A stretch of 49,580 bases of DNA. Origin: Bigelowiella natans CCMP2755. Taxonomy: Eukaryota; Protista; Cercozoa. The notes below the pieces were generated by a model that was not told the DNA's origin, made no database searches, and was given only the letters and a program-made list of their open reading frames with translations. How positions within the stretch are numbered: the stretch's first letter is position 1; the number at the start of each line of letters is the position of its first letter. Made by a program: the position numbers and the translations under genes. The DNA is taken from positions 1 to 49,580 of the forward strand of contig ADNK01000560.1 in NCBI GenBank assembly GCA_000320545.1, in the 5' to 3' direction. Shown here in pieces: positions 16,064 to 40,053 of this stretch.

Positions 16064-19000
16064 TCATCGCTTTCGGAACTTCACCAACCACCAGGTAATA
16101 GATTCCTCTCTAACCTTATCTCCTTTGTCGCTTACCCAGAACTCACCTTCGTCCTTAGGTTCGTGTCCATACCAGCCCTCTGCATCAAGGTCCCCCAGGA
16201 CCTTATACCAGTGCTCAAAGGGTAAGTCGGGAACAGCTAGGTAGAGTAGCTGATATTTTCCGTCCTTTATTTTCATAGCTACCCTCTCCATATTTCGTAA
16301 TCCAGGGTAGCCTAGATAGACAATCTTCATGCGCCAATCGTCGTTCACCCTGACCTTATTGTTTCCATATTCCACATCGAACTTAGGTCGGGGTCCTAAA
16401 CAAGGCATTGCTCGCTCCCACACAGTAGGGTTTACTTTAACATCCTCTAGGAGCTTCTCACCGATATCATAATTCTTTAGGTGACTGATGTGGCGCAAGG
16501 TGACCCTGTTCCCATCATAGATGTAGTACTGCTTCCTCCCCTTCCTCTCGGTAACCTTTGCAACGCCACCCCAGAAGGGGTCTTGTTTATTTCTCGATCT
16601 CAGATTTACCTTGGCCCTAACATACTGTCCTTCCTTTAGAACTCGGCCATCGTACGGGACCTTCTCGTCTTCGCTCTCGGTATCGTCGTCGTTGTCGTCG
16701 CCTTCTTCCCTCTCCTTATCCTTGATACCTCCCCCAGACGTGAAGGTGTCGTTTACTAACCCTTGTATCTTGTCTGGTGTGGTGCTATTTATCCTGCTTA
16801 GGTTGGCCAAGGTGCGGTGGAGTCGCTCTACCTTGGAGTTGGACTGGGCATAGTATACAGGTGAGGCATCAATATTAGGGTGTGGTAGCTGTAGAAGAGA
16901 GGTCTCATTATCCACATGTAACTTCTTTGGTATCTTGTTTATGCTAACTTCATCAGGGATAGCCTGGAGCTCAGACTCCCAGGTACGGTAGCAGTTAGTA
17001 AGCCTCTGCTTATATAAGCCTTTGTTCTTCTTAGCAACGTTGACCTTGATAATCTTTTTAACCCAGCACTTTCCAGTGGCCACATCAACGAAGGTAAGGT
17101 AGTGATAGCCATCGTACTTATAAACATCAATTTGCACGATATCTAAGAAGTTCCTTGCTTTGATTTTCTTAGATGCACGGCTCTTGCTGGACTCCTTGGT
17201 GGCGACGCCTGCCGCCTTCAAGCTGGAGCACCTGCAGCCACGCAGGTATGTCCTTATCTCTTTTAGCTTGTAGGGCCAGTAGTAATGGTAGAGTAGAGCA
17301 GTGATATGGTTTTCTCCTACGTGTGCAGGTCCATGGGCGGTAAAGAGAAGGGCTCCCCTGGTCCGCCGTGGCACGTAGGTACGCCTAACATTATTAGTGT
17401 ATACATATATCCTATCACTAAGTACCTCATGCTTGTGTTTGTATTTATCCAGGTGTTCTTGAAGGTGCTGGAGCTCCTCTGGCTCAGGCAGGAAGTCGCC
17501 GTCCTCGAAGGTAATCGCGTTAACCATAGGGGTGACCTGGGTAGGGACTTTCTTTTCGAACAGCCTGCTGAAATAGTCAGCAAGCTGCTTGTCTCCTGGT
17601 GCGTAGACCACTGTCCTCTTGTCCCTAAACTCTTCCGTGTCCGCCCTCATAGCTGCATACTCATCGTTAGGCGCTTCGAGCTTGCGGTCGATGCCTAGGA
17701 GGGGCTTGTGGTCAGTCATTAAGGTGAAGCTGGGCACCGACAGCAGGTAGTGTCTTAGTTTCCTCTGCGCCTCAGTCATGGCTTTATACTCTCCTTTTGT
17801 AGGGCTGTACTTGGCCTCAGCTGCTGTGCAGGCCCTGCCCCACACCCGTATGATCTGCTGGTCTTGGGTAAGTACAGCGGCCATACCTAGCTTAGACCAG
17901 TCTGTCCATAGGGTAGCTGGTCTAGTAGTGTCTAGCTTAGCATTCAATAGGGTGTTGCTGCATAACTTTATTAGGTTATCGAAGTGGGCATCAAGGCCAG
18001 CCTTGGCCCACACCTTAGCGAAGCTGAGGCCTACAGAGTTCTCCTTCCGGTAAGCAGTAGTAAAAGCAGCTGCAGTCCTAGCGTAGGTAGGGGAGAACCT
18101 ACGTAGTATCCAAGCTGCAGTCTGCAAGAATGACTTTAACTCCTTTGCATTCTTAGGTTTAGGGGCTTGCTGTAGTGCTGCTACTTTCTCGGGGTTTGGG
18201 GTGATGCGGCCTTGCTCCAGGTAATATCCACACCACTTGATTCTTGTAGCTAGGAATGTACACTTCTGCAGTCTAATAGTAAAACCGAAGTGTGCAAACC
18301 TAATAAATATATTTTCCAGGAGGAAGATCTGAGCGACGACTGTGTTGGTACATATTATGTCATCATCCACATACACAAACACAAACACCCACAACACAGA
18401 CGCCATCCCATCATGTGTGTATGCCCTGTAGTTCTGACTACTGAACGCATCCCCTGATATGCTTAGGCCGTAAGGGAATACGACGAAGTGCCACTTCCTG
18501 TGCCTGCTGGAGAACGCGGTAATGGGGCGGGAGGTTTTGTGGATGGGTGTCTGCATGTATGATTCATTTTTATCTAGGGAAGAGTAGTATTTGTATCCTA
18601 TGACGTGTTCAATAACGTCATCTATCCTTGGTGTAGGTGTCTGGATCCTCTTTATTACTCGGTTGTGGCGGATGAAGTTGTGCGCCAGGCGGAAGAAAGG
18701 GTAAGTAGGTTTCTTAGCTAGCACATGTCTCACGTTCCATGGTGAGTTGCTTGGCTCTATCTTCCCTTCCTTTGCCCATTCATTGATCTGCCACTCTATC
18801 TTTTCCCAGTCCGCTTCCGGTCGCCTATGTTCTGGGTCATTGATGATGCACTCTTCGTATCCCTTCTTTAGCTCGATCTTTACTGGGGTAAGCTTGCTGG
18901 AGGGCTTCGTCGTCGGCTTGGTGATGTCAGAGTACTTCTCGTTTAATATTTTATTAATGTACTTTTTGCCTTTGTCGATATCCCAATCATCAGCTGGGGG

Positions 19001-21037
19001 GGTCTTGTCCAGTAGCTCCGTTATCTGTCGGATGGTCTTGCCGGGGTTCTTCTTCCGTAGCTCGGTAGGTGTAGGTAGCTTGTTGTCCGCTAGGTCCATA
19101 AACTCTAACGCATTAACGCTTGACTCAGAGGTCCACTCGTCAAGCCGTATCATGTTCTGGCTGATGGTCCTGCCTGACTTCTTTGGCAACTTAGCAAAGT
19201 ATATCTTGTGATTGTAGAATGATATGATCCCCCCTAATTTTTCTAGGGCATCCTGTCCGAGGAGTAGTTCCATGGATAAAGTCATGGCTACTCGGGTCTT
19301 GATTTGGGTCTCCGCGTCGCTGCCAGGTATCTGTAGCTTTAGCATTAGCTCACCGACGGTCTTCATGGAAGAGCTTCCGTCTGCTTGAGCATATTTACGT
19401 TCTTTCTTAGTCACTTGATCCAATAGTCCTAACCTTCTTACTGTGCTTAGGCTTATGAAGGACTTCGGCATGCTGCCACTATCCCAAAGGGCAGGTAGTT
19501 TCTTGTAGTCTCCGTAGCTGTCTTTAACTTTAACCTTGGTCATAGCAACTTTGATAGTCCTGTTAGCGTCTTCGTCATTAATGTTGCATACTCCTAAGTT
19601 CTTTATGTCGTCTAGGGTCATGGGCTTGTCTTGGTCCTGCGTTGCTGGTACTGCTGTCTTCGTCGGCGCCTGCTTAAGGTGATCTAATATTCCGTTTATC
19701 TGCTGCTGTATAGCATTGATACTGTTCTGCTTTTTGTTCTTATATTTATTGTTCTTCCCGTTGTTGCTGCCTTGCCATTTGCTGTTGTTATATCCTTGTC
19801 CTCTGCCTTTCTTTCTCTTTAACTTCTCGTAGTGTTCGTTGAGCTGCCTGATCGTCATCCTGGGTCGTCCTTCTTTCCTGTCTCTGCAGTCTTTAGCGGT
19901 GTGTTTCCCTTTACGTGAGCAGTATCCGCAACGTCGGTTACCTTCCCTGTCCTTGTACCAGTCTCGCTGCGGCTTAATAGCGTTAATGTTTCCTATGCCA
20001 GGTACCTTAGGGCTGGTAAACTTGCGGTCCTGCTCCTGCTCGCGTAGGGATATAGCCTGCACTGCTGCCTCCATCGTGGTGTAGCCTTTCTCCGTAACGT
20101 AAGTGGATTCCTTTATCTTTAACTTGAACTCTTCAAACCTTGCCTGATCATCACCTGTGTTGTAATTAAAATCATGTAGTTCGTCGATCATATCCTGGAA
20201 GCGCGTGGCAAAGTCTCTAACAGGTTCTCTCTCATGCTGCATCATTGCTCTGTATTTTCTAATAGCCTGGGGTAGGGAGTTAGCATCCTGTTCATTTACA
20301 AAAGCCTTCATTATCGCCTCAACGTCTCGTAGCCCACTAACTGTAGTGTGTATTTTCTCTAGCTGCCTGATCCGGGTCCTGCCTGTCTCGTAAAGGTCCA
20401 TGGCTTGCTTTATTATAGCTAGCCATTTGAGCTTGTCGTTTTCGGTGGGGTTAGGGGTAAAGTCGCAGAGTATACTCCTAGCGTTCTTCCACCACCTCCT
20501 TGCCTCACCTCTTTTCCCGTTGTATTTCGTTATCATAACCGGTGCTGTTTTAACAGACATGAACTGGGTGTTCCGCTGTACCGGCTGCTGCTGCTTGACG
20601 GTGCTCTGGGTCGTCCCCCGCGAGGCGCCCAGACCCCCGTCGTTCCTAAACAAAGCTGCCCACTCTGGAGGTAAGTCTGCTTCGTAATCCATGATGTCCT
20701 GCATGATAGCTGCCCAAACATCATGTGTCTGATACTTGTATTCTATCGATACTTTCAGTTTGGCGTAGTTGCTCGCCCTGGGTCGCAAGGCTCGTAATGC
20801 CATTACGACCTTCTTGCTTTCGGCGGCCACGTCCTCGTCGTCCGCCTCGTAGAAGTTCTCCAGTGCCTCTGCTGCTGCATCTGCTTTCTTAATCCCGGGT
20901 GCTGGTCCCGGCGGTGCCTGTGGAGGTGTTCCTCCTCCTTCCTTAGCGTCCGTATCGCCCTTCCTTTCCTGTTTCTGCTCGTGCCCTTGCACGGCCTGCG
21001 AGCCAAAGTCCTGCTGTTCTTCTAGCTGCTGTGACAT
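16064..21037 (-). CDS. Gag-Pol polyprotein (1657 aa): Gag with zinc knuckle, aspartic protease, RT, RNase H, integrase, C-terminal Dam-like domain
   Basis: Knuckle CGYCSRKGKHTAKDC; protease ALWDSGS; RT LDKNESY...FPYGL...YVDD; RNase H TDWSKLG...E...TDHKPL...ADYFSR; integrase H-H-C-C, QIDV...HVDN...SNSKVERLH; GPY/F-like DPFWGG...HISHLKNY. No stops or frameshifts. Confidence 0.97.
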   Translation of the reverse strand: MSQQLEEQQDFGSQAVQGHEQKQERKGDTDAKEGGGTPPQAPPGPAPGIKKADAAAEALENFYEADDEDVAAESKKVVMALRALRPRASNYAKLKVSIEYKYQTHDVWAAIMQDIMDYEADLPPEWAALFRNDGGLGASRGTTQSTVKQQQPVQRNTQFMSVKTAPVMITKYNGKRGEARRWWKNARSILCDFTPNPTENDKLKWLAIIKQAMDLYETGRTRIRQLEKIHTTVSGLRDVEAIMKAFVNEQDANSLPQAIRKYRAMMQHEREPVRDFATRFQDMIDELHDFNYNTGDDQARFEEFKLKIKESTYVTEKGYTTMEAAVQAISLREQEQDRKFTSPKVPGIGNINAIKPQRDWYKDREGNRRCGYCSRKGKHTAKDCRDRKEGRPRMTIRQLNEHYEKLKRKKGRGQGYNNSKWQGSNNGKNNKYKNKKQNSINAIQQQINGILDHLKQAPTKTAVPATQDQDKPMTLDDIKNLGVCNINDEDANRTIKVAMTKVKVKDSYGDYKKLPALWDSGSMPKSFISLSTVRRLGLLDQVTKKERKYAQADGSSSMKTVGELMLKLQIPGSDAETQIKTRVAMTLSMELLLGQDALEKLGGIISFYNHKIYFAKLPKKSGRTISQNMIRLDEWTSESSVNALEFMDLADNKLPTPTELRKKNPGKTIRQITELLDKTPPADDWDIDKGKKYINKILNEKYSDITKPTTKPSSKLTPVKIELKKGYEECIINDPEHRRPEADWEKIEWQINEWAKEGKIEPSNSPWNVRHVLAKKPTYPFFRLAHNFIRHNRVIKRIQTPTPRIDDVIEHVIGYKYYSSLDKNESYMQTPIHKTSRPITAFSSRHRKWHFVVFPYGLSISGDAFSSQNYRAYTHDGMASVLWVFVFVYVDDDIICTNTVVAQIFLLENIFIRFAHFGFTIRLQKCTFLATRIKWCGYYLEQGRITPNPEKVAALQQAPKPKNAKELKSFLQTAAWILRRFSPTYARTAAAFTTAYRKENSVGLSFAKVWAKAGLDAHFDNLIKLCSNTLLNAKLDTTRPATLWTDWSKLGMAAVLTQDQQIIRVWGRACTAAEAKYSPTKGEYKAMTEAQRKLRHYLLSVPSFTLMTDHKPLLGIDRKLEAPNDEYAAMRADTEEFRDKRTVVYAPGDKQLADYFSRLFEKKVPTQVTPMVNAITFEDGDFLPEPEELQHLQEHLDKYKHKHEVLSDRIYVYTNNVRRTYVPRRTRGALLFTAHGPAHVGENHITALLYHYYWPYKLKEIRTYLRGCRCSSLKAAGVATKESSKSRASKKIKARNFLDIVQIDVYKYDGYHYLTFVDVATGKCWVKKIIKVNVAKKNKGLYKQRLTNCYRTWESELQAIPDEVSINKIPKKLHVDNETSLLQLPHPNIDASPVYYAQSNSKVERLHRTLANLSRINSTTPDKIQGLVNDTFTSGGGIKDKEREEGDDNDDDTESEDEKVPYDGRVLKEGQYVRAKVNLRSRNKQDPFWGGVAKVTERKGRKQYYIYDGNRVTLRHISHLKNYDIGEKLLEDVKVNPTVWERAMPCLGPRPKFDVEYGNNKVRVNDDWRMKIVYLGYPGLRNMERVAMKIKDGKYQLLYLAVPDLPFEHWYKVLGDLDAEGWYGHEPKDEGEFWVSDKGDKVREESITWWLVKFRKR

Positions 21038-21053
21038 TGTTAGTCAAATCGTT

Positions 21054-30233: not shown

Positions 30234-31143
30234 CCTCTTCCCTTCCCAGAATGTTATCTTAACGAAAGCACCTTGAACTCCTTGGCACAGTCGCGTGCCT
30301 CGCAGAGCTCGAAGCGCGTCTTAGCGTCCGTGAGTTGTTTCTTCAAGATGAACTCGGCTTGGATATTTTTCAAGAGTTTTTTGGCCAATGTGACCCACTC
30401 TCCCTTGAGTCCAAGCTTGAGGCCCCTTTCGATCGCAGCCTCAATGAGTTTGGCATCTCTGGCCTTCATAGCGGCTAGCAAATCCTTGTGGAAAGATTCG
30501 ATAGCCTTTGCAAGCTTCGTGGCACAGAGGAACATTGGATCTGACACGATGTCGCATTCTTGAGCTTTTTTTATCGCCTCCCTCAGACGCTTCAGATCGC
30601 GATCGACAGCAGCCTCACTCAGCTCGCGGATTCGGAGACCACGTAGAGCCTCAAGTTCACGCTGCTTCTCCTCTGCAGTTCTTAAACTTCGCCGCACAGC
30701 CTTCTGTAGAATCCGGAGAACGATGTTTGGGTTGTTATCATTCGTCTTGACCTGCACACAATTCTGGAAGTGGAAGGACTGCATTACTTCGTCTTTATCG
30801 TCGCGTGCGAGCTTAAGGGTGAGGAGGCATAGTTTACGGATGAGCCATTCCCCAGCGTCGGGATCCATGATGCGAAGAAGCTGCAACAGATCCGCCTCCT
30901 GACGAATGAGCTTTCGCATTCCAGCCACAGTTTTCTCCTCTATGAGAGGCACGCGAGAAAGAAATACCTCGCGCATGGCCGCGGAGATTGTTGTCGGCCT
31001 GATGGAGGGGAGGAAGGCAGCCAGAAAGCGCGCGCTGCGGGTCTCGAGCGCTATCTTTGTCACCTTGAAATCGTCTGGCTCAATTTCCTCCACATACAGG
31101 TACCTGTTGGAATGATGTTGCTCTTTAAGATGGCGACTAGCAT

Positions 31144-33475: not shown

Positions 33476-35083
33476 ATGGCGGGAAATTCGAAAGCAAATT
33501 CGAACCCCAAACGAAGCACGTCGAACGGAATAAATTCTAGATCTACCTTTGAGAGAACGCGTCCAGGTCCAGGTTGTGCTGAAATTATGCAAGCGGAAAG
33601 AAGGACAAGGCGAAAGAGTAAAAAAGGTACACGTGGCGTACATTAAATCGATACAAGCAGCAATATGTAGATTCTCACGACGCACATTCGTAGTAATTAC
33701 AACTTATCTTTAGCAAAATGGGGAATCTTCTCAAGAATAGCGCAGGGAAAAGCCTGCTTCCGAAACCGTCAAAATCAGAGACCCAGTTAAATTAAGCACA
33801 CTTACTGAATAATTTGCTAAAATGCTTTACTTGTCTGAATGATTTCCAGCGATCTTGAAAAGGGAAGACAACGGCGATCGAATAAAAAGGTGACATACTC
33901 ATTTATTATAAACCAATCTTTCACCATTTGTCAAAATAATAGCTTTGAAGATTTTGATGCCTATGGATATCTCGAGAGGATGAGAAGCAGGTTGCAACAA
34001 AATGCATCTCCACTTCTTCTCATGGACATAAAAAGTGGAAGTACCCGAAAACATACGTCTAGGTCGTACATGAGACCAGGTTCGGATCCACATGACACCT
34101 CAGGATCGCCCTGGAGTACAGTTGCAATTTCAAATGATGCTGAAGTTAAATCAGTAGGCTATACGTACGAATTACATGGGGCACATCAACCTTTCGACAA
34201 AACTAGCGCGAAGGAAACGATGGCTTTCTTCAAGTCGCCAAGAAGATCCCCTCCTTTCTCTGTTTTTCATAAACGTCAAACTGACTTCCAAAAACAATTC
34301 TTTAACGCTAGTGTTGCTGTTCAAGACTGCTTTGGAGAGGAGAAAATTTCGGAATTGTGTACCAAAAAAGTCCTTCCAAGGATAGACAGTTATCATAGCA
34401 AAAACTGTCATGAAAATGGAAATAAATCAAAGACAGGGTATGAAAGTGGGTTGAAGACACTTGAATCTTCTAGAAATTCAACGAATGAGGAAGAGAGACT
34501 TGGGTTTCAAGCGTTGGTCGCTCCTAAATATCGAAACTCCAGTACTTTTTCAACAATCTACCCTCCACGCATGCATTCTTTTGAGCCAAACTATTCAAAA
34601 CCCCAAGGACGCAATCATTTTGACAAGAGCACCAGTGGTGTAGAGATGGACGATGTAGATGACATAACTCTGATGGATTGTAGTGAGCTTGTTCTACCTA
34701 AAAACTCCAAAAATTCAAATACTACCCCCATTACATCACAAGGTAACAATGATTCGCTTTCTCCATTGTCCTATGATAGCCACTTACTAGAGAAGAATGA
34801 GCGGAAATGGCATCCTAGAGCTCTCTTTGAGACAAATCCTTGTCCAATACCACGTTTTAATTCTTCGAATGGTAGAGAATTAGCAAGGACACCTGTTTTT
34901 CACTTAGATCCACATTTATGCCCAATAGAGCATAACAGTTCTCTACCACTATTGGATGATCAGGCGAAAATTGAAACACTACCTATCATTAGTGACGGCC
35001 TCGTCGTAGAAAATTCGCATCAGTATCATGCAAACAGAACGATGAACATTTCAGATCTTGACATTTTCAAACATAATCCATGA
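33476..35083 (+). CDS. Hypothetical Ser/Asn-rich, probably disordered protein with a long terminal exon
   Basis: 414-codon open frame 33839-35083 plus plausible short upstream basic exons. No recognisable domain; start uncertain. Confidence 0.5.
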
Positions 35084-35466
35084 CATAAAATCAAAATTTT
35101 AGTTTGAGTATGAAGCCATGAGATGCGACGAAAATAAATACATACGTCAACCTGTACACGCTTCTTCATTTAGTATATTATTTCTACAGGCACTATGTAG
35201 TATAAAAATACACAATAAGTAACATATAAAATGTTTTACAATATAAACATTGAATAAAAATTGGTGTTTTGTTCTTTGCTACTATTATCAGTTATCTTGC
35301 TAGAATTATTACTTATAGTCATGAGTGCAAAGACGCAGGAATTGTACTTGCATTGCACAGCAGCAATACATGATTGAGCGCACATTAAGCTTGCACTGCG
35401 ATGTAATTTTGATATCCTTTATATTTTCTATGATGTTATCAACTATAACGTTTGAGAGCAGCGTTA

Positions 35467-37743
35467 TCAACAAACTAATGGCTTTTCCTGTAATTCCTGG
35501 ACGCAAATAGTAACGATCCCATTTCCCCGATCTTTCTTGACTTTCTTCACTACGAACTGTGTTCCTGGTGCGATGAGATGCTCATCTTCCTCTTGATAGC
35601 AGGAATACTTTTTAATATTTACGGCATTGTTCGTAGAAACCTCGAACAATGTCCTCTTTCCAGATTTCCCTAGGAATCGTCTATGGATCGTACACTATAC
35701 ATCAGCTACAGTTACAGCATTAATTTGGAACAATCATAGGAGGAAAATGTCATTTATTTTACTTCGCAATTGCAACGTCTTTAGTGCATGAACTGACACC
35801 CCACCAAGTGACTCGGTTGCCTTTAGAATACTTCTTACTGAGATCTAAATTTACGCCTCGATATAAGAGTCCTTCGTTTTTGGGAAGCTTTCTAAGTGCT
35901 ATATATGTTATGGAAGACAAATAACAAGCAACAAATATAAGATAAAGTTGATGGGGGATTTCAAACCTCTCACAAGAAAAATTTCGCAATAAACCTGTGA
36001 GCAATAGTTGAAGATAGCCGAAGAAATCCTTGATTTTTGCTCGTTTAGGATCTCGGAGGTCCTGACATTTTTAAGTTCATTTCAAGGTAGCCATGTTCTT
36101 CAAAGCAAAAAATGAAGGATCCTTTCTTTATTTATGTTATGACACTACCTCATTTAAAATTTTGTATAGCTTGCATTCTTGCGTGTATAAGTTTAAAGCA
36201 GCGATTTCATTTATTGTTAGGGTCTTCTCATCCTGGGTTCCTCGATTCCCTTTTTCCTTAGAATTATTTCTAACTGTTATTGCCGTCTTTCCGGTTCCCT
36301 TCATTCTGCTATCTTCGTCAGTCCTCAATATCTCCTTTGCAAAAACTAGTGCATTATTGATTCGTGTGGCCAGATTCTCGATGCGCGCGAGCAAGGCCTG
36401 GCATCCAGTTTCTAGGTCCTTTATCACCTCTACCCTCTTTCGAAGGCGTTTTCTAGGGTTCTTCGATTTTCTTGTTGTGAGAATTCCAAATATAGGATCG
36501 AGGGTTATTTTTGATTTTATTTCATGCTCTAAATCGCCAAGTCTCTCGAGATACGAGTTGTGCAATTCGATGGTAGAATCGATGAACTCGGACATTCGCT
36601 GAGCAACTAAATATTGAAATGTATTTTCATACACGCATTCGTGTGTATCCTCTAAAAATACCAAGTGTTGAGTAACTGTTGAGTTCAGTATATAAAAAAT
36701 AATTATGTATATTAAAAAAATTAATCGTATACTTTGTATATGGTGATTGTGGTGTATTTTGTTTATGTCTTTTAGGAATCAACGCAAAAGATATTTGAAA
36801 CTTCGTCGAATGGACATGATCGATGTAATGAGTCACCCTTTCTGCTCTTCTTCTTCATCCTTGTGTTCTTCTCTTTGTCGTAGGCAGTTGGAAGCCAGTC
36901 AATCGTCTTGAGCTTCAATTTTTTCAGCTCCTCATTGATCTTTCCGAAATGATCACCCCAAGAGAAACCGTCACCAGTCGCAGCTGGATTACAATGAACG
37001 ACGTGTCGAATTTTCACGTCTGTATACGTCTCTTCTAGCATCTCCGATAATTGTCGCTTGATGCTCAAAGCCTTAGCTCCCCACCATGCGAACACGAGAC
37101 CCTGATACTGTTGTTCTTTCACCACCTGTTTTGCTTTCAGGATCTCCTCAACGATAGCAAAAATGATTGGGCGCCAGAAGGTGGTATGTGCTCCAAGATT
37201 CGGCTTCTTTCCTCCATCGATCGTTAGAGCAGCGTTTAGAAGAAGACATCCCTGCATTAGGATGGATTTAAACCATTCCTTAGGCCCCACTGCTTTATTG
37301 TGTTTGAGGAAGATACGCATGTCTTTCACAGGCATATCGCACCCGGTCTTAAACTTTGAATTCATGGCCGCTCGAATGATACAGCGCATGCTGTTAATCT
37401 GACCGAAACGCCGATCGTTCCAGCTCTTCAGAGTCGCATCAAACATTGCAATTCCTGTTGCAGACTCTTGACGGGGGTACGGGCTCTGGCCGAAAATAAC
37501 AACGTTCCAATGAGCTGGAGGATTTGGCTTTATTGCTTGAAATGTAAGCTCTCGAACAGGTACGATAGATCTGCTACGATCCGGCCCAATAAAGGAACTT
37601 GCTTCCTCTTGTTCCTCGATCACATCTTTGAGCAGCACATACCAGTCTTCACCCCCCCCCTTGAACAAAGGTTCGAGGCACAGTGGGTCGGTGTCTTCCC
37701 CTGACCCATCCTCTGCTATCTTAAGTTTCTTCTTAGGCGGCAT
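35467..37743 (-). CDS. Uracil-DNA-glycosylase-fold domain fused to an R-S-E mono-ADP-ribosyltransferase (5 exons)
   Basis: UDG-like VVIFGQSPYP...ATGIAMF, QGCLLLNAALT, FAWWG, HCNPAA. A phase-compatible GT-AG intron at 36607-36836 joins it to AQRMSEFIDSTIELH...IAALNLYTQECKLYKILNE|DLRDPKR...|LYRGV...WWGVSSCT|...SCYQEEDEHLIAPGTQFVV. First in-frame ATG gives MPPKKKLK; an upstream exon is possible. Confidence 0.85.
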
Positions 37744-38028
37744 CGATGCTTCCAAGCTCTGTTGGTTTGTGGCGGTAAATCTCCCTCCTCCGACGCTGCT
37801 CGCCCTTTCTCTTTCCGAAGATCCATCTAAAGCCGATACGGGAAGGGTTTCCTGTTTAGCGCGACATGGAAAAGTCTCATTTTCGCCAAAATTCGCCTGC
37901 GTTTTTGCTCAGTCAAAGCTTTCGGTCCATGGCACACTCACATGGGGCCTGAGACCTTCTGATGAGGTTCAAGTGTTCTGCTCTGGAAAGAGCATTGTGT
38001 ACCGGCACTGATTGTTGCGACTAGAGCA

Positions 38029-40053
38029 ATGTTAATCGTTTGCCTTCTAGCTTTAGCATCTTGGCTGCCGAAGCCAAACGTGAGGTGTTGCGTGAAAAAA
38101 GATGCAGTTATGGCCAGCAGCTGTGGAGTCAAGCCGATGTCCCATCTACGTACACGCAGGTAATGGATACCACAAACACCTTATTCATAATGTACCAACG
38201 TATTTATGGATTGATGATAACGCACACTTTTCACAGCCGGCAGGCACTCTTGGCACGTGCTCAAAAGGACCATTCCAAACTAAACAGAAGAAGGAGGCAA
38301 TTCACAAAGGTTTCATCGGAAGAACGTTCAGATACTTGCAGTCGAGAAAACCTTTTCAATTTACAGTGTATTTTCTATGTTTAGTGTATGCTGGGGATTC
38401 TGACAAGTCTGCCGTCACTAGCGGCTCTAAACTACGGTGGGGTCCATGCCAGTGATGACCTCTCCTTAGTTTTGGAAGAAGGAAACAATGTAACAATTCT
38501 GGACGAAATAGTCTCCTTAGTGGATAGGTAAACCTTTGATCATCTTCTTTGTATTCTTCTGAAGCAATACGGATAGCATCACCCCCCAATTTATTAATTT
38601 TGTTGCAGATTCTACCTTTATCGCTACGACACGCCGTTGACCGCCGATGATCAAAGGTCTGCTGCTTGTTCATAAGGATGAAAGGAAAATGGTTAGAGGG
38701 ATTAGGATGCCGCACAATGTGCACATAGCAATATCAGCCTTTTTTACTTAACACCAAGTGCTGCATACATACGAACACTCCACGCAGACGTGAGAAGCAA
38801 TTTTTAAGATAGAGAAAAGGGACAGATCTTAGGTTATTGTGGGGGAAAGTTAGCCAAATTTTTACCAAATATCAGCGAGGTTAGTCCAATAACACAACAA
38901 ATACTCATGCGCATGTGCCGCTATTTTTGGCACTGTTGGTGCTGTATCTTTGTTAGGTTTGATATCGAACGCTTTAAATCTGTGAAGGAAGCTTTATTGC
39001 AAGAATACATGCTCCTGTTGCGAAAGAAGCAGTACTCTTCCTCCCCGGAGGAGAAAATGGTAATTGAATGGAAGACGTAGGAGAATAAGGGAGGTACTAG
39101 TAGAGCGAGGATGATTGCTCACAGGAATCATTCATCTTCAGCCATCTCAGCCATACCTTCTTTCCAATAAAAGGCTTTTCTGCGCAAGGCTGCTAAAGAA
39201 CTTATGCATAGAGGTGGCTCATTTGATCGTTATACACGCTACCTCCCACCAGAAGCTCTCAGGGCTAAATCAGTTACTTTCTCCGCCCCCAACACGGGAA
39301 TCCGCGTGCCAGATCTGAGAGAGGAGGAGGAGGAGGAGGATAATGACGTGAAACAAGAAATAGCAAGACAAGGCATTCTTACCGGATTGTACGAAAATCA
39401 TAGAAGCCATAGCATCAAAATGATGATGATCTTGCACATGAGAATTATGGTGACTAGAACGATGGAGAGACCGTCGAAACGATCAATAGAATGATACGAT
39501 TTACCTGATGATGATGATGAAATTGCGGAAACTTGGTTCTTCAAAATACAAAATACTTTAGCTTTATAATTAGGTACAATCGTAACCATTGTAACCATTA
39601 CCATTTTTTGCACATTCAAGGCTTCCAGCATCGCATGACTCATTGGATAACGGCAATGAAGGGAAAGAAGCAGAACCCAAAACGACTTTTTCCAGCAGAA
39701 CGACAACAGCAACAAAGAGCGTGAGCCCTGCCCGGATTATAAGGAAGAGGTTTCGGTCTGGAGAAGTGGGAGAGGAGCAATCAGAAGAGATGAGGACAAC
39801 AGCAGCAAATATTGCTGTAATTCGTGTTCGGTATTTCGGGCAGGGTACAGCAAGGGCCCTTGCAGAAGAGATAGAAAGGATTTCCAACGGGGAAGAACCA
39901 ATCGAGGAGGGAGAAGAAGTAGGAGCCGACGTCATGCCATCACTGCGGCAGCAGCAGCAGCAGCAAAAGGATCTGCAGCAAGGTGGAGATTTCCTTCCTT
40001 GACGACACTTCTATTATGATCAACCTTCTCCGCATATATGTCATTTTTTGATA

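Follow-up and report, generated by a model that had tools for sequence, protein, structure and literature searches.

Does a single gene of the cercozoan Bigelowiella natans CCMP2755 join a uracil-DNA glycosylase (UDG) domain to an ADP-ribosyltransferase (ART), and, if so, what might such a protein do? The locus lies on a contig of 49,580 nucleotides (ADNK01000560.1), analysed here over its whole length and referred to as the window. The original prediction, made from the letters alone, was of one spliced frame in which an altered glycosylase fold, gained laterally from bacteria, would detect uracil or modified bases and trigger ADP-ribosylation.

The fusion gene is real, spliced and expressed. 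It runs on the minus strand from an ATG at 37743 to a stop at 35467, in five exons whose phases agree and which are free of internal stops, and its coding frame comprises 1782 nt and 593 aa (stop included in exon 5); upstream of the ATG the frame stays open without a further in-frame ATG. The sequence motifs PPKKKLK, GQSPY, LLLNA, HCNP, YRG, SSCT and EDE were found at the positions originally given for them. The features are as follows:

36837..37743, minus strand, coding part of exon 1 (aa 1-302): basic leader, UNG-like domain (approx. aa 18-288, carrying a Nitratifractor-type insert) and basic linker RMKKKSRK
37720..37740, minus strand, PPKKKLK, predicted monopartite nuclear localisation signal
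37477..37491, minus strand, motif 1 GQSPY, with Ser87 at the catalytic Asp position and Gln86 and Tyr89 kept
37441..37455, minus strand, GIAMF, with Met100 at the base-stacking Phe position
37231..37245, minus strand, LLLNA, with the pocket Asn170 kept
36979..36996, minus strand, motif 2 HCNPAA, with Asn252 at the catalytic His position and the HPSPLS leucine loop absent
36607..36836, minus strand, intron 1 (230 nt, GT..AG), between the two domains and in frame; joint in run X2
36149..36606, minus strand, exon 2: conserved long helix, basic insert and start of the ART helical part
36539..36604, minus strand, long helix of exon 2, after the UNG-like domain
36434..36472, minus strand, basic insert of exon 2
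36176..36190, minus strand, LYTQE of exon 2, where the ART helical part begins
36062..36148, minus strand, intron 2 (87 nt); joints in X2 and X9
35995..36061, minus strand, exon 3, ART helical part
35899..35994, minus strand, intron 3 (96 nt); joints in X2 and X9
35763..35898, minus strand, exon 4, with LYRG at 35855..35866 (Arg491) and SSCT at 35783..35794 (Ser513)
35681..35762, minus strand, intron 4 (82 nt); joints in X2 and X9
35467..35680, minus strand, exon 5, with the S-x-Y-x-x-E-x-E loop at 35581..35604 (Glu554, Glu556) and the stop

All four GT..AG introns are spliced out in transcript-like contigs, from runs guessed to be RNA. The joints of introns 2-4 were recovered in two of four runs (X2 and X9, from two studies), and that of intron 36607-36836, for which the original prediction had sought RNA support, in one of the four (X2; one contig, with a short side of 30 letters). 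Contigs from X2 and X4 also terminate at 36837, and among the transcript-like contigs of the four runs none covers the entire fusion frame. A single raw RNA run placed 27 reads on the window, with the minus-direction depth mostly near the 3' end, too few for joints. Introns have a GC content of 29-33% and exons one of 41-47%. The predicted joining of UDG and ART in one spliced frame was thus borne out by the in-frame joint and by contigs that skip all four introns. Two separate genes, as the other possible outcome, are ruled out by the in-frame joint together with the occurrence of the UDG-like domain and the ART in one frame in 80 of 80 GTDB loci kept (the best 80 of 561). We also rejected a degenerating copy: the window differs at 9 of 131 conserved columns, none of them catalytic, and its nearest relatives at 6-8. 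The claim that an exon of about 0.9 kb is unusual in this region did not survive, since adjacent transcripts show unbroken stretches of 831 nt (30270-31100) and of more than 1.1 kb (33941-35065); with comparable pieces in neighbouring transcripts, exon length is uninformative on origin, and we dropped it as a sign of transfer. Metagenome contigs L127 and L128 hold relatives with likely introns within the domain.

Several other features of the window were recorded. A spliced antisense transcript crosses the gene on the plus strand (36087-36220, 36416-36775, 36825-36883 and 37181-37331), with plus-strand GT..AG joints in X1 and X2 and a matching loose end in X12; as a contig of X3 is unbroken from 33941 to 36084, this transcript is likely to be read-through from the convergent gene. 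On the other side lies a divergent spliced gene (38029-39980, plus strand), the start of which resembles a signal peptide with a basic, transit-like segment behind it, and contigs connect it with sequence from 37460 or earlier. At position 37818 contigs of four runs exit the window with an identical loose end, absent elsewhere in the window. A frame of 1659 aa at 16064-21043 (minus strand), with aspartyl protease, reverse transcriptase, RNase H and integrase zinc-finger matches, is an LTR retrotransposon polyprotein.

The UDG half is descended from a family-1 UNG of the Nitratifractor type. Exon 1 has no match in Pfam and matches the NCBIfam UNG models (best E 1.5e-18), every one under its cut-off; for TIGR00628 the score is 51.8 bits against a cut-off of 185.75, so that the curated family score is not reached. 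The AlphaFold model of exon 1 (pLDDT 81.9) aligns with the Nitratifractor structure 5x3h at Z 16.8 and rmsd 3.3 over 233 residues. A full-length model was obtained for the relative from Lotharella (pLDDT 89, pTM 0.73), and both models match family-1 UNG, best of all the unconventional Nitratifractor enzyme, which took the top Foldseek rows for the Lotharella model. The motif-1 extension PYPR-x-ESA-x-G and a helical insert are common to the Nitratifractor UNG and the UNG-like domain of the fusions, the latter being 50-55% identical between protist and bacteria.

The original prediction of an altered glycosylase fold was upheld, and the alteration extends to both catalytic residues. The window protein has Ser87 and Asn252 in their places; the catalytic Asp is found in 0 and the catalytic His in 2 of 228 ART-fused domains, with Asn/Asn in 216, and both are kept in 127 of 151 relatives without a detected ART (domains complete at both sites, after 88 incomplete rows were dropped, in a set weighted to actinomycetes). 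The 41 non-redundant rows (<70% identity) give the same picture, with the motif-2 Asn in 39. At motif 1 the window protein, Lotharella and others carry Ser, Thr, Met or Ala. The pocket Asn is present in all 228 ART-fused domains, and Tyr and Gln in 226; the Phe at the site equivalent to GIAMF, which is the base-stacking residue in UNG, is replaced by Met in 220. The earlier view of HCNP as an altered HPSP was right in that the motif is altered, but the catalytic H-P aligns with N252-P253 and not with H250. This register was derived from profile-profile alignment, from the stand-alone sister family (with a profile from these proteins alone) and from the H-P of Nitratifractor; in a pairwise alignment with conventional UNG it is H250 that occupies the His site, as in the original prediction, so the register rests on the profile alignments. 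H250 is found in 30 of 41 relatives and N252 in 39, the remaining two having His. By its motifs the protein is not an active family-1 UNG, and a separate canonical ung gene is present in five of five carrier genomes tested. Human UNG with the substitutions D145N/H268N is catalytically inactive and retains uracil-DNA binding (PMC4756853).

By motif and modelled fold, the other half is an R-S-E ART. Exon 5 passes the Pfam ART model (PF01129; 39 bits, cut-off 22.3; E 7e-10), and R, S and E-x-E are all intact in the window (Arg491, Ser513, Glu554/Glu556). Among the 41 non-redundant relatives, Arg is kept in 41, the two Ser in 39 and 41, and the first and second Glu of E-x-E in 39 and 41, respectively. 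The best fold matches of this half, taken from the model of the Lotharella relative and not of the window protein, were Vis, the ART of a toxin/immunity pair and C3. The E-x-E motif suggests arginine as the acceptor of ADP-ribose. In the Lotharella model a 33-residue helix (303-335) connects the two domains, and its Phe, Thr, His and Arg are invariant or nearly so; aa 303-345 of the window protein are 68% identical to Lotharella. The NLS-like N-terminus noted at the outset is present and of a type seen in eukaryotes, K[KR]x[KR] occurring in 7 of 10 eukaryote-sourced leaders and in 0 of 73 named bacterial leaders, which are shorter.

Such fusions form a conserved pseudo-glycosylase/ART family, apparently undescribed. 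The search with exon 1 returned 952 proteins of 530-2000 aa among 2555 candidates. In the 120 matches listed, 118 carry Pfam ART, and most of those named are from actinomycetes, with a planctomycete and Lotharella globosa besides; members already stand in databases as 'uracil DNA glycosylase' or 'ADP-ribosyltransferase domain-containing protein'. The close fusions that the original prediction placed in Streptomyces and myxobacteria do exist, in Streptomyces and in Polyangiales: the domain is present in 58 of 301 Streptomyces genomes and in 5 of 401 genomes of the Polyangiales phylum (each set includes the seed carrier). The protist fusions with a named source are those of Lotharella, Paulinella, Noctiluca, Amoebophrya, Diplonema and Flectonema. 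Members of the ART clade bear WWE, SAP, HeH or macro domains. Both GQDPY and H-P are present in a stand-alone sister family of Naegleria, Giardia, Kipferlia, Monocercomonoides, Gefionella and Spironema and, more distantly, of Calditrichota. Sister domains that lack the Asp are joined to a TKL kinase in Thecamonas, to a RING finger, or to zf-PARP/FHA/PBZ in Acytostelium. We found no description of a UDG/ART fusion in the openly accessible papers covered (titles, abstracts and main text), and comparative-genomics tables may list the architecture; in a review on bacterial ADP-ribosylation the words 'glycosylase' and 'uracil' are absent.

Some relatives have other architectures. Six sister fusions of the kinase, RING and zf-PARP types (P0151, P0163, P0170, P0194, P0210 and P0268) are without Asp and His, and each may be a sensor family of its own. 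P0001 and P0002 each carry two dead UNG-like domains in tandem, one of the proteins also a SAP domain, and no ART was seen in either; their gene calls may be truncated. Transcript-like relatives L113-L116 and L119 have a common N-terminal extension without a Pfam match. Viral carriage was not backed by any of the collections searched: no relative of the domain was found in IMG/VR viral contigs, phage records matched at the level of conventional UNG only, the viral fold search gave no convincing two-domain match, and in the plasmid collection a full match was present in 4 of 72,556 records, all actinomycete and three of them >1.5 Mb. The Atlas returned generic UDG clusters only, mostly Pseudomonadota.

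A recent lateral gain from bacteria finds no support in the trees. There the closest company of the window is Lotharella and an MMETSP protein (99/89 with 39 rows by 531 columns; 96/83 with 48 rows by 260 columns), which points to a chlorarachniophyte-like host, within an ART clade (100/100) that stands among eukaryotic stand-alone and fused paralogues, with Paulinella first to branch and the bacterial rows nested among protist ones as a shallow group. The AU test rejected the joining of the window to the bacterial rows (p 0.001) as well as a single clade of all non-bacterial fusions (p 0.003 and p 0.014), the groups having been named after the trees were seen, with unnamed rows assigned by placement, several long branches, and the proteobacterial Nitratifractor-type enzymes left out. 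Transfer from eukaryotes to bacteria is the simplest reading of these sequences, and there may have been repeated transfers among protists and bacteria. Stand-alone UNG-like proteins (GEDPY) of Calditrichota and Spirochaetales (P0408, P0428 and P0197) sit on a long branch among the metamonad sequences of the tree.

In actinomycetes the fusion has a constant partner. In 75 of 76 loci it is accompanied by a macrodomain gene, either next to it or fused with it; the remaining locus ends at a contig edge, and the 75 pairs comprise 48 divergent, 6 co-directional and 21 fused arrangements. Searched separately, the macrodomain was found in the same 58 of 301 Streptomyces genomes as the fusion and was missing from the other 243; each gene always came with the other, a count inflated by linkage and kinship. 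The 75 partner rows read W-V-x-P-T-N-x(6)-GG, and the partner has the MacroD Nx6GGV loop without G[VIA][YF]G, that is, the first of two MacroD motifs only. ADP-ribose on arginine is as a rule taken off by ARH/DraG enzymes or by MavL-type macrodomains. The loop of the latter, WDxx[S/A]xPGN[D/E] (PMC10951314), is missing from the partner. Four Polyangiales loci have an N-terminal vWA fusion in place of the macrodomain, and 42 metagenome loci (many short) gave a macro match in 17 and a vWA fusion in 7; no macrodomain was seen within the window. The expected defence-island context was not found: in 20 chosen loci 11 of 134 neighbours matched PADLOC, many of them generic and without a background control, and no family recurred across loci. 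In L094 (2081-7377) the fusion comes after an endonuclease III gene and has a WGR-PARP gene and a macro-like match next to it, and the vWA-fused forms of L091 (192-2006), L096 (2035-4227), L097 (1134-2942) and L088 (27-674) follow a same-strand kinase-FGE-sulfatase gene (partial in L088).

A dead glycosylase fold, an ART with intact motifs and, in bacteria, a predicted eraser gene together point to a sensor of DNA lesions by which a reversible ADP-ribose signal is triggered, a reading we hold to be evenly balanced between right and wrong. The glycosylase fold would bind uracil-containing or abasic DNA without cutting it; binding would turn on the fused mono-ART by allosteric coupling, probably through the conserved connecting helix; the ART is predicted to modify arginine on a protein, and the macrodomain might reverse or read the mark. 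The protist protein would act in the nucleus, and the output would be a reversible signal for deaminated or uracil-rich DNA, be it damaged self or foreign. With Met in place of the stacking Phe and no leucine loop, the fold may bind a ligand other than uracil. Counted against this reading are the two ART-fused proteins that retain His, the different H-to-N register in pairwise alignment, a window in which no macrodomain was seen, and a partner without the MavL motif and with one of two MacroD motifs. The original account is thus supported in part; it had overlooked that the second catalytic residue is lost as well, that the fusion has a dedicated macrodomain partner, and that its range among protists is broad.

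The nature of the partner also suggests that the acceptor could be nucleic acid, the UNG-like pocket presenting a base or strand end to an ART that ADP-ribosylates DNA or RNA, and the macrodomain removing the mark as in DarTG. A macrodomain rather than ARH/DraG would fit, ADP-ribosylation of the uracil base reversed by TARG1-like macrodomains exists (PMC13036486), and the R-S-E enzymes Scabin and SCO5461 modify guanine (PMC8120803). However, those DNA-acting R-S-E enzymes read Q-x-E, against E-x-E in 39 of 41 relatives here, and the partner matches DarG weakly (E 0.014) and has the MacroD-like loop; we consider this unlikely. UDG families 2 and 3 use Asn at motif 1. Given the motif-1 Asn in 216 of 228 ART-fused domains and a pocket that is altered yet conserved, the domain might instead be a slow or re-specified glycosylase in which Asn activates water as in SMUG1/TDG/MUG, and which excises an unusual base, remains bound to the abasic site and passes the signal on via the ART; modified phage bases can be substrates of UDG-fold enzymes (Brig1; PMC11078745). 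We think this quite unlikely, as the His is gone as well, and the Ser, Thr, Met or Ala of the window protein, Lotharella and others imply that Asn is not required.

Repeated company of WWE, PBZ, macro and vWA domains, and the one locus (L094) that adjoins a WGR-PARP gene, would suit a dead fold that no longer reads nucleic acid and serves as a regulatory or ADP-ribose/protein-binding module within ADP-ribose signalling. SAP, HeH and zf-PARP are DNA-binding domain types, and their presence as partners, the NLS-like leaders of eukaryotic copies and the retained pocket Gln, Tyr and Asn make this distinctly unlikely. Very unlikely, in our view, is a decoy, in which the dead UNG traps UNG inhibitors of viruses or mobile elements (Ugi, p56) and the ART is then set off in an abortive response: the patchy presence in Streptomyces and the Polyangiales phylum and the writer-eraser pair fit a conflict system, but no defence neighbour recurs, and the Nitratifractor UNG, the nearest solved relative, is reportedly not inhibited by Ugi.

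Extended to the whole family, the lesion-sensor reading leads to a more tentative proposal, which we regard as possible and rather doubtful: dead uracil glycosylases would be receptors for DNA lesions, a class so far unrecognised, whose output in protists runs through an ART, a kinase or a RING ligase, and the ART form would have arisen in microbial eukaryotes, been exported to actinomycetes, myxobacteria and planctomycetes, gained its macrodomain eraser there and come to respond to uracil-rich or deaminated foreign DNA. The UDG fold is familiar from proteins that cut in repair or against phages; a natural form that binds without cutting and is tied to a signalling enzyme would, if true, open a new route from uracil or abasic DNA to a reversible ADP-ribose signal. 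About one-fifth of the sampled Streptomyces genomes carry the fusion with its private macrodomain, which makes the pair a candidate for the poorly explained endogenous ADP-ribosylation of this genus and offers an easy laboratory system, and the family may exemplify a protist gene passed to bacteria.

Among known systems, the UNG of Nitratifractor salsuginis (PDB 5x3g/5x3h) shares with the fusion the best fold match, the PYPR-x-ESA-x-G motif and the helical insert, but it is stand-alone and has GQDPY and H-P, where the window protein has Ser and Asn, Met for Phe and a fused ART. The engineered uracil sensor human UNG2 D145N/H268N is changed at the same two positions that are Asn/Asn in 216 of 228 fusions; it is a laboratory construct with Phe and leucine loop intact, whereas the window protein has Ser at the first position. 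With E-x-E R-S-E mono-ARTs (Vis, the Tre1-type toxin/immunity pair, C3-like fold) the family has the fold and the R, S and E-x-E motifs in common; it differs in the fusion with a sensor-like domain, in that no secretion or delivery part was seen, and in a macrodomain partner instead of a DraG-type immunity protein. DarTG and sirtuin-macrodomain pairs likewise co-inherit a transferase and a macrodomain gene (PMC9503650 and PMC8120803), but the fusion family has another class of transferase, and its pairs are mostly divergent or fused and seldom co-directional; PADLOC gave no match for the fusion and only the weak DarG match for the partner. The anti-phage glycosylases Brig1/Brig2 also employ the UDG superfamily fold beyond routine repair, but are active, stand-alone and located in defence loci, in contrast to a fusion without catalytic residues or defence context. 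PARP1-type lesion-activated ARTs resemble the fusion in the proposed logic of a lesion sensor gating a fused nuclear ART. In PARP1 the sensors are zinc-finger and WGR domains and the ART is of the H-Y-E type, whereas the fusion combines an R-S-E domain with a pseudo-glycosylase.
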